This document shows, one piece after another, positions 3,001 through 4,814 of a stretch of DNA of 4,814 nucleotides (position 1 is the stretch's first letter; every line of letters begins with the position of its first letter). The DNA comes from a virus. Lineage: Duplodnaviria; Heunggongvirae; Uroviricota; Caudoviricetes. The DNA is taken from IMG/VR virus record IMGVR_UViG_2529293173_000003; one strand, 5' to 3'. Made by a program: the position numbers.

Positions 3001-4814
3001 ATTAAAAACATGTTACCAATGTTAGGTGAAAAAAAACTGGTTTCATCCATAACAAAAGAGGATTTACTTTTCGTAAGGAGAGATTTGTTGACCGGTTACC
3101 AAAAGCTTTCTAATGGAAAGACTTCTTCCATAAAAGGGCGCTCAGTGGTCACGGTAAACTACTATATGACAACCATAGCTGGAATGTTTCAATTTGCAAC
3201 AGATAATGGTTATACCTCAGGAAACCCATTTAACGGTCTGGCTCCCTTAAAAAAGTCCAAGGTAAAACCAGATCCTCTCACCCGTGACGAATTTATTCGT
3301 TTTATTGAGGCTTGCCGTCATCAACAAACAAAAAACCTGTGGATTCTCGCTGTATACACGGGTATTCGTCACGGGGAGTTGGTATCGCTGGCATGGGAAG
3401 ATATAGACCTTAAAGCAAGGACTATAACCATCCGTAGAAATTATACAAAACTTGGCGAATTCACTCCACCAAAAACCGATGCAGGCACCGGAAGGACAAT
3501 TCATCTGGTTCAACCAGCTATTGATGCTCTTAAAAGCCAGGCGGAAATGACCATGCTTGGAAAGCAACATTCTGTAGAGGTGAAGCAGAGGGAATATGGG
3601 AGAACTGCTGTGCATAAATGCACTTTTGTTTTTAGTCCTCAGGTAACAAAACAGCAGCAGTTGTCCGGACCTCACTACAAGGTTGACTCCATCAGGGAGT
3701 CATGGACAAGTATCTTAAAACGCGCAGGTCTGAGACACAGAAAATCGTACCAATCCAGGCATACTTATGCATGCTGGTCACTTGCCGCAGGAGCTAATCC
3801 TAGTTTTATCGCAAGCCAGATGGGCCACACAAACGCACAAATGGTATTCAATGTTTACGGAGCATGGATGAAAGACAACAATCACGAACAGATAGAACTC
3901 CTTAACAAAAGACTATCTGAAAGTGTCCCATGTATGCCCCATAAGAAAGCAGGGTAAAATAAAAACTTGCAAAATCAATTAGTTTACCCTTAATCCCTGT
4001 CACGTTACGCGCGTGACGCAACATTTTTAAAAATCGACGAAGATCGTCCAGGAGCGCCGTTTTTCAAGGGTTGGATAGATGATTCGTTTACCATGTCGAT
4101 GAACTTCGACGAATTTCGCCGATAAAAAGTGTCCCATACATGCCCCATTGATGCCCCATAAACAATATCAGGAATTGACACTGGTTATCCATACAGATAA
4201 AAATAACACCTGTACATAACTACAGTTACAGGAGGGTGTTATGCGTGTTGAGATCTGTATCGCTAAAGAAAAAATCACTAAAATGCCAAACGGTGCTGTG
4301 GATGCGTTAAAGGAAGAATTAACCCGACGCATCAGTAAACGTTATGACGATGTAGAGGTGATCGTAAAAGCCACCAGCAACGATGGCCTTTCTGTTACGC
4401 GCACCGCCGATAAAGATTCAGCTAAAACTTTTGTTCAGGAGACGCTGAAAGATACCTGGGAGTCTGCTGACGAGTGGTTTGTTCGCTAATAAACACGTAA
4501 ATCGGTAACGGCTGGAAATCATTCAATACTCGCACTATCGAAAGTTCACCAGCCAACCGCGACACGCTCTTACATACGAAGTGCCGCGCTTTCCTTAATA
4601 ATTTTTTAGCAGTACTGTGTAAATAATGAGCGACCTAATCCATGCATGACGCGTAGTGCCTATTGTGCATCTTTCTGCGTCTCTTTTTACTGGACCCAAG
4701 CCAATGATGCTGGCGATACCATTCCCGCCAGGCCCACTTACAACAGTAAAATTCGGAGCTCTGCCTTTACATACAATACAATCTACCTAACAAATATCCC
4801 CCGGACATTGCAAC

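Follow-up and report, generated by a model that had tools for sequence, protein, structure and literature searches.

The window, as we call the whole 4,814-nucleotide stretch of DNA analysed here (Caudoviricetes, IMG/VR record IMGVR_UViG_2529293173_000003), carries an excisionase gene (xis), a tyrosine integrase gene (int) and a dinI-like gene, and a short block of sequence from the 3' end of int recurs about 200 bp downstream, between int and dinI. This interval is the phage attachment site (attP), and we consider it probable, at roughly 85%, that the repeated block consists of arm-type integrase (Int)-binding sites of a lambda-like attP, belonging to a Shiga toxin 1a (Stx1a) phage of the Sp15 type and having its crossover core at 3996-4015. 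The features that concern this reading are the following.

2383-2637, plus strand: xis, an excisionase open reading frame (ORF) of the DUF1233/PF06806 family (Pfam E=2e-29), named xisR in the source record
2671-3957, plus strand: int, a tyrosine integrase of 428 amino acids (aa), with an N-terminal Arm-DNA-bind_2 domain (aa 7-70) and a Phage_integrase catalytic domain
3920-4160, about 240 bp, no strand: the predicted whole attP, with a short int-proximal arm, the core and a long int-distal arm, its limits set at the outermost arm-type units
3923-3942, plus strand: putative int-proximal arm-type pair, GTGTCCCAT at 3923-3931 and ATGCCCCAT at 3934-3942
3996-4015, no strand: common core CCTGTCACGTTACGCGCGTG, from a four-way comparison, with the bacterial site (attB) in mlrA/yehV
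3999-4017, no strand: candidate core-type Int sites in inverted repeat around a 7-bp candidate overlap, with putative cleavage positions
4129-4159, plus strand: putative int-distal arm-type cluster, GTGTCCCAT at 4129-4137, ATGCCCCAT at 4140-4148 and ATGCCCCAT at 4151-4159

The window is a joined attP

Positions 3700-4814 were compared by megablast with 5,426 complete E. coli genomes and are fully covered by one record only, NZ_CP133119.1, at 100% identity; all the remaining genomes match the window from 3990 onward only. NZ_CP133119.1 is a 47,874-bp circular record of an O157:H7 strain, deposited as 'plasmid unnamed2'. It contains stxA1a/stxB1a, lambda-like replication, Red and tail genes, xisR, int and dinI, the gene content of a lambdoid Stx1a phage, and its size agrees with that of prophage Sp15 of strain Sakai (2896062-2943940); this 'plasmid' is in fact the genome of an excised Sp15-type Stx1a phage. 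The joined form of attP was thus present in 1 of the 5,426 genomes. In Sakai the two halves of the window lie about 48 kb apart, the int side adjoining mlrA (yehV) and the dinI side adjoining yehU. The window is the joined attP of a circular 47.9-kb phage of the Sp15/CP-933V/VT1-Sakai type and holds no junction between prophage and host; the DNA downstream of the core is therefore the other phage arm and not host DNA. An earlier note on this sequence had taken the repeats to mark a likely att junction. An att site with its crossover between the two copies does lie here, but it is the attP of a circular phage, not attL or a prophage boundary. No transfer RNA gene was found when the window was searched for one as integration target, and the comparison with K-12 identifies mlrA/yehV as the gene of integration.

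The crossover could be placed by aligning four sequences: attP (the window), both junctions in Sakai, and mlrA of K-12, where the site is empty. Only CCTGTCACGTTACGCGCGTG, 20 bp at 3996-4015, is common to attP, attL, attR and K-12 attB. The attP junction sequenced from circularised Sp15, ttaatccctgtcacgttacgcgcgtgacgca (Asadulghani et al., 2009, PMC2669165, Fig S5), is 31 nt long and identical to positions 3990-4020 of the window. The empty-site comparison that the earlier note had recommended thus puts the crossover between the repeat blocks. That note had also proposed looking for the motif at the other prophage end, and the outcome is divided: each prophage junction retains its own repeat block only, the proximal block at one end and the distal block at the other.

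A perfect inverted repeat, GTCACG (3999-4004) and CGTGAC (4012-4017), flanks the 7 bp TTACGCG (4005-4011), and comparable half-sites around 7 bp are present in four of the relatives introduced below (Stx1_699, GZ7, VT2 and CobraSix). Inverted half-sites around 7 bp are the usual layout of core-type sites and their overlap region. The half-sites are unrelated in sequence to the repeated units, which lie 66-85 bp from the core centre on the int side (the proximal pair) and 121-151 bp from it on the other side (the distal triplet).

Two side observations concern the core. Base 3995, immediately to its left, is C in attP and in both O157 junctions and T in K-12 attB; the difference is due to polymorphism between strains or else marks how far to the left strand exchange extends. 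Escherichia phage vB_EcoS_phi330 (PV189401.1, our locus L096), otherwise identical to the window across attP, contains at about 2525-2565 a tandem duplicate of the exact 20-bp core CCTGTCACGTTACGCGCGTG; this looks like an in-silico joining of prophage ends in which the core was counted twice, a real duplication being possible.

The repeated units

A repeat search of the window recovered the 23-nt direct repeat described in the earlier note, at 3920-3942 and 4126-4148 with 21 of 23 positions identical, together with the further unit that it had placed at 4151-4160, which reads ATGCCCCATA; a third, in-register copy of the 23-nt repeat occupies 4137-4159. The underlying unit, RTGYCCCAT, occurs five times at the positions listed above, always on the plus strand and at an 11-bp pitch. 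The proximal pair overlaps the final int codons (V-P-C-M-P-H), and because the spacing is 206 nt the two 23-nt copies, of which the first lies inside int, stand in different frames, again as had been noticed. A 21/23 repeat within 400 bp was reached in none of 200 Markov shuffles of the window (shuffle maximum 19). The whole 47,874-bp phage genome holds six RTGYCCCAT matches, five of them inside 245 bp in which 0.011 would be expected (Poisson P about 1e-12). With a single match outside attP in 47.9 kb, the idea that the motif is a common genomic repeat, by which the earlier note would have been overturned, is ruled out.

Relatives were found by tblastn of Int against phage genomes, and their targets and hosts differ. 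Reconstruction from intact phage genomes, or by joining prophage ends at the annotated core, gave seven attPs: Sp15, Stx1_699 (Int identity 83%), Klebsiella GZ7 (73%), VT2-Sakai/933W (wrbA; about 66%), Enterobacter CobraSix (about 65%), Yersinia vB_YenM_30.14 (50%) and Rac, with IntR (41%). In all seven, the int 3' end bears two TG(C/T)CCC units spaced 11 bp apart, and the distal arm bears two to four more on the same strand. Between the second proximal unit and the first distal one, an interval that contains the core, lie 195, 195, 196, 197, 200, 192 and 187 bp. Across the 32 units, positions 1, 2, 4, 5 and 6 never deviate from T, G, C, C and C, position 3 holds C or T, and 29 units have A at position 7. 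As read from these alignments, the family core motif is TG(C/T)CCCA, and RTGYCCCAT is its Sp15 form.

A wider set, combining 80 IMG/VR loci with the relatives from the seven attPs, comprised 86 int loci with 37 distinct sequences. The proximal pair is present in every one of the 86, at a distance to the stop codon that ranges from -22 to -63. Most IMG/VR loci end right after int and are informative for the proximal pair only; the distal cluster was seen only in joined attPs (CobraSix, locus L083 and, as a degenerate pair, locus L036) and is absent where mlrA follows int (loci L017 and L032).

Since the Int tails share the pattern (V/A)Px(M/V)P(H/Q), with two prolines invariant in a six-protein alignment (P420 and P423), coding conservation of the proximal pair had to be excluded. 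All five of the third-codon positions within the pair are invariant among 36 distinct sequences; in the 61 nt upstream of the pair, third positions have a mean major-allele frequency of 0.61. The codon preceding unit 1 specifies S, F, Y, R or N, and its last base is always T. The Rac int frame ends in ...NARLS before the pair is reached, and the latter, TTGCCCCCAATTTGCCCCA, lies beyond the stop codon in non-coding DNA. Because synonymous sites are invariant and the Rac pair is non-coding, the constraint acts on DNA, and the earlier description of the repeat as a DNA-level element rather than a duplicated coding end was correct. The int frame of the Sp15/933W clade merely continues across the DNA-constrained pair.

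Some further observations were made in the relatives. The attP of Stx1_699 (L007/L011) has a distal arm and dinI nearly identical to window 4016-4260, a different core and an int 83% identical; it lacks one 11-bp arm unit, with two distal units versus three in Sp15. Judged from these sequences, the pattern indicates a mosaic exchange with its breakpoint at the core, plus variation in unit copy number. In several relatives int itself contains one more TG(C/T)CCCA, in inverted orientation, about 100 bp upstream of the proximal pair (minus strand; L006 2654, L008 2633, L009 2636). It coincides with conserved QMGH codons (CAGATGGGGCAC) and is probably a by-product of coding; the window has GGC at the QMGH position and shows no inverted match. 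In Pseudomonas phage MR13 (L097, 2019-2254), whose Int is 30% identical, another repeat, CTCAGCA(G/A)C...TTTCA(A/G)CAAC, has one copy at the int stop codon and a second 184 bp further downstream, with an inverted tandem pair and a sequence resembling a tRNA 3' end between the two. The same geometry with another motif hints that the motif co-varies with the arm-binding domain.

The protein expected to read the units

Residues 7-70 of Int match the Arm DNA-binding domain PF12167, formerly DUF3596 (E=2e-24), and the catalytic domain matches PF00589 (E=4.7e-18). Sequence matches in PDB fall in the catalytic regions of Tn1549 Int, XerA and lambda Int, and the same sequence search returned no solved structure covering the N-terminal domain. 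An AlphaFold2 model of the Int N-terminus built from a 30-sequence alignment (mean predicted local distance difference test score, pLDDT, 83) consists of three strands followed by a long helix; the single-sequence model (pLDDT 48) was not used for the fold search. The predicted fold matches known arm-binding domains, with scores that are modest for a small domain but with a coherent set of matches. Integrases of this kind, including those of Stx2a phage and Gifsy-2, form the IntBPP-1 subgroup of arm-binding-domain recombinases (Smyshlyaev et al., 2021, PMC8138268), to which the PF12167 match and the identity of about 66% with VT2-Sakai/933W Int assign the present protein. From these data we infer that the PF12167 domain most likely binds the RTGYCCCAT units.

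Candidate accessory sites

Between the units and the core, three further elements deserve mention.

3973-3985, plus strand: putative integration host factor (IHF) site AATCAATTAGTTT, differing from WATCAANNNNTTR at one position and lying between core and proximal pair
4032-4058, no strand: conserved accessory block AATCGACGAAGATCGTCCAGGAGCGCC, with ATCGAC/ATCGTC at a 10-bp pitch
4065-4077, minus strand: putative IHF site TATCCAACCCTTG, one mismatch, in the distal arm

The assignment of 3973-3985 and 4065-4077 to IHF is suggestive only. The window holds three sequences one mismatch away from the IHF consensus, and two of these fall between arm sites and core; in the aligned attPs of relatives the place of the first is taken by a block containing ATCA, and in VT2 and Rac that of the second by TTTTCAA-N4-TGTTA. 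The block AATCGACGAAGATCGTCCAGGAGCGCC is kept in Sp15, Stx1_699, GZ7, CobraSix and partly VT2, despite their different cores, and is not conserved in Rac or the Yersinia phage. It is a candidate site for Xis or another accessory factor, as its sequence conservation suggests. A role as Xis site accords with the Rac system, in which XisR binds an int-distal att fragment in an electrophoretic mobility shift assay (PMC4632033).

Proposed mechanism and alternatives

Lambda-type systems are characterised by arm-type sites on both arms (here two and three) that are unlike the core-type sites in sequence, by a core that attP and attB have in common and in which inverted core-type sites flank an overlap of 6-8 bp, and by an integrase with a separate N-terminal arm-binding domain made of a three-stranded sheet and a helix; each was found here, the arm-type sites and the overlap as candidates. 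Int would accordingly be heterobivalent, its N-terminal Arm-DNA-bind_2 domain contacting the RTGYCCCAT units and its C-terminal domains the core. Bends at the IHF-like sites 3973-3985 and 4065-4077 would allow one Int to bridge arm and core and the intasome to be built. Strand exchange with attB in mlrA (yehV) would then take place inside the 20-bp core, across the 7-bp overlap, and excision would be directed by the product of the upstream xis gene, acting on the long arm. Among the options listed in the earlier note, arm-type sites flanking the core was right as to the kind of element, with the crossover between the copies at 3996-4015; its location of them at attL was not, the site being attP.

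Several points weigh against this interpretation. We found no binding experiment for Sp15 Int on these units in the searchable literature. The IHF-like sites each have one mismatch, and the window total of three such matches, versus 6.3 expected, shows no enrichment. The distal arms are nearly identical in Sp15 and Stx1_699 and in GZ7 and L083, and because the relatives share phylogeny and near-identical distal arms, the independent comparisons number about five rather than seven. In lambda, P2 is inverted relative to P1 and P'1-3; as all five Sp15 units have the same orientation, the bridging geometry need not equal that of lambda.

The units might instead be bound by a protein other than the arm domain of Int, such as the excisionase or a host factor that organises attP. 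We regard this as unlikely, although it is the strongest of the alternatives, as nothing in the analysis identifies the binder directly and the fragment shifted by Rac XisR (PMC4632033) would include the Rac distal cluster. Units are found on both arms, however, including the int-proximal one; their number and one-turn pitch fit tandem arm-type sites; the arm-binding domain of Int would otherwise be left with no candidate target; and the separate block at 4032-4058 is a better candidate for Xis.

The earlier note also offered the option that the downstream copy is what remains of the 3' end of another int gene; such a remnant, left by phage-phage recombination and since decayed, is in our estimate very unlikely. 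In one frame 4125-4151 reads KSVPYMPH-stop, to be compared with the Int tail SVPYMPH of Stx1_699, and identity to the 3' end of Stx1_699 int amounts to 20 nt. When 3958-4240 was searched against int, however, blastn matched the 23-nt block only and the best tblastn hits spanned 12-15 aa (E about 0.1). The extended similarity to int expected of an integrase pseudogene is thus lacking, and this candidate was rejected. Equivalent clusters of two to four units, with no int-like flanks, stand at the conserved distance of 187-200 bp in all relatives, and in Rac neither cluster is coding.

We give next to no credence to the remaining option of the note, an att core overlapping the int 3' end with the second copy left over from an earlier or tandem integration: a direct repeat around about 200 bp superficially resembles duplicated att cores, but the sequence common to attP, attL, attR and attB is 3996-4015 and not the repeat, the published attP agrees, and each prophage end has its own repeat block only. 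An equally negligible chance attaches to conservation of the proximal copy purely as a C-terminal Int peptide, with the distal copy a coincidence, for which the invariance of P420 and P423 might speak; synonymous sites are invariant, the preceding codon changes its amino acid and keeps its third base, the Rac pair follows a stop codon, and the distal cluster is kept in non-coding DNA, with the clustering probability given above.

A role of the arm-type units in the control of int expression, in addition to recombination, is conceivable but unlikely: Int, bound to the two units within the last int codons, would act on the transcript of its own gene, and a hairpin specific to attP would contribute. 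The core palindrome (3998-4018), followed by CAACATTTTT (to 4027), scores as terminator-like on the int strand, and the T-run is absent at the prophage junction because it belongs to the distal arm. If this were true, the 3' end of int mRNA would differ between phage and prophage, a sib-like, state-dependent control within the att site. The RNA fold of the core hairpin is weak (-9.8 kcal/mol, z = -2.4), and the version at the prophage junction folds at least as well (-16.1 kcal/mol); given these energies, the core hairpin as terminator is kept as a low-probability reading only.

Neighbouring genes

4175-4489, plus strand: phage dinI-like gene, with its coding sequence at 4241-4489 and a promoter-like TTGACA-18-AAAAAT at 4175-4204; a neighbour of attP and not part of it

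The dinI region starts 16 bp past the last arm-type unit. LexA-box-like sequences, an imperfect CTGGTTATCCATACAG at 4181-4196 and a perfect CTGT-N8-ACAG at 4210-4225, overlap and then follow the promoter-like element, an arrangement that implies, on sequence grounds, SOS-inducible expression adjoining attP. Whether DinI is encoded by host or phage had been left open in the earlier note. In Sakai, dinI lies inside the annotated prophage Sp15, at the opposite prophage end from int when integrated; because the DNA past the core, joined here in attP, is the other phage arm and not host DNA, DinI is phage cargo. Elsewhere in the window, ORFs 671-847 and 825-1184 overlap in different frames, and the source record annotates the first only, leaving 848-1180 unannotated; 671-1184 may be a frameshifted early-region gene.

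Comparison with known systems

The attP of lambda contains the arm-type sites P1, P2 and P'1-P'3 as well as sites for IHF, Xis and Fis. Like lambda Int, the Sp15 enzyme is, as judged from its sequence, a heterobivalent tyrosine integrase with an N-terminal arm-binding domain. In both phages a short arm with tandem arm-type sites at about one-turn pitch adjoins int and a long arm lies on the far side, inverted repeats in the core surround a 7-bp overlap, xis is directly upstream of int, and IHF sites, which in Sp15 are candidates only, lie between arms and core. In contrast to lambda, the arm-binding domain of Sp15 Int belongs to another Pfam family, PF12167, and the proximal units are inside the int reading frame. 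The motifs also differ, the lambda arm motif being C/AAGTCACTAT and that of Sp15 RTGYCCCAT, and the distribution of arm units in lambda is roughly the reverse of the two int-proximal and three tandem distal units of Sp15. The two sites are of similar length, about 240 bp, going by the accessible part of a paper that gives 240 bp for the lambda attP complex (PMC4880445).

The same Sp15 element, with its integration in yehV/mlrA, was studied by Asadulghani et al. (2009), the available portions of which report the core junction only; arm-type repeats and accessory sites are not described in those portions of its text and supplements (PMC2669165). Rac shares with Sp15 a homologous Int (IntR, 41% identity) and an excisionase of the same family, XisR, and has TGCCCC units both on the 3' side of int and, at the other prophage end, 115-165 bp inward, with a 26-bp core. 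It differs in its target (ttcA), its core, the position of the proximal pair after the stop codon and the missing conservation of the 4032-4058 block. Binding of XisR to attR has been shown, in a paper whose text does not contain the word 'arm' (Liu et al., 2015, PMC4632033). In 933W/VT2-Sakai (Sp5), integrated in wrbA, GTGCCCCA(G/A) units occupy the int 3' end and four TGCCCCAA units the other arm; unlike in Sp15, the four distal units form two pairs and the C-terminal tail of Int is longer, and core and target differ. In KplE1, recombination-protein sites reportedly overlap the intS promoter and could affect int expression; in Sp15, unlike KplE1 so described, the sites overlap the 3' coding end of int. 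As far as its accessible part goes, the paper on IntS and TorI of KplE1 concerns regulation of the prophage integrase gene (Panis et al., 2010, PMC2951348).

The core and target of Sp15 attP are thus already published, and arm-type sites as such are textbook knowledge. No description of the arm-type sites of yehV, wrbA, Rac or DUF3596 integrases was found in the searchable literature, and we found no earlier description of an arm-site motif for the PF12167 family; because subscription-only papers lay outside this search, one may exist.

Significance

The map of the window is settled by this analysis: the feature is attP, the core lies at 3996-4015 and DinI belongs to the phage. Mechanistically the site is ordinary and adds nothing beyond the lambda paradigm. 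What it does provide is a testable arm-site motif, TG(C/T)CCCA at an 11-bp pitch in clusters 187-200 bp apart, which could help to delimit functional attPs and to tell intact attPs from prophage junctions in assemblies, and, for mlrA/yehV and wrbA phages, could assist in designing vectors for integration or assays of excision. The integrase family to which the motif belongs mobilises the Stx1 and Stx2 phages of enterohaemorrhagic E. coli, Rac, and related phages of Klebsiella, Enterobacter and Yersinia.

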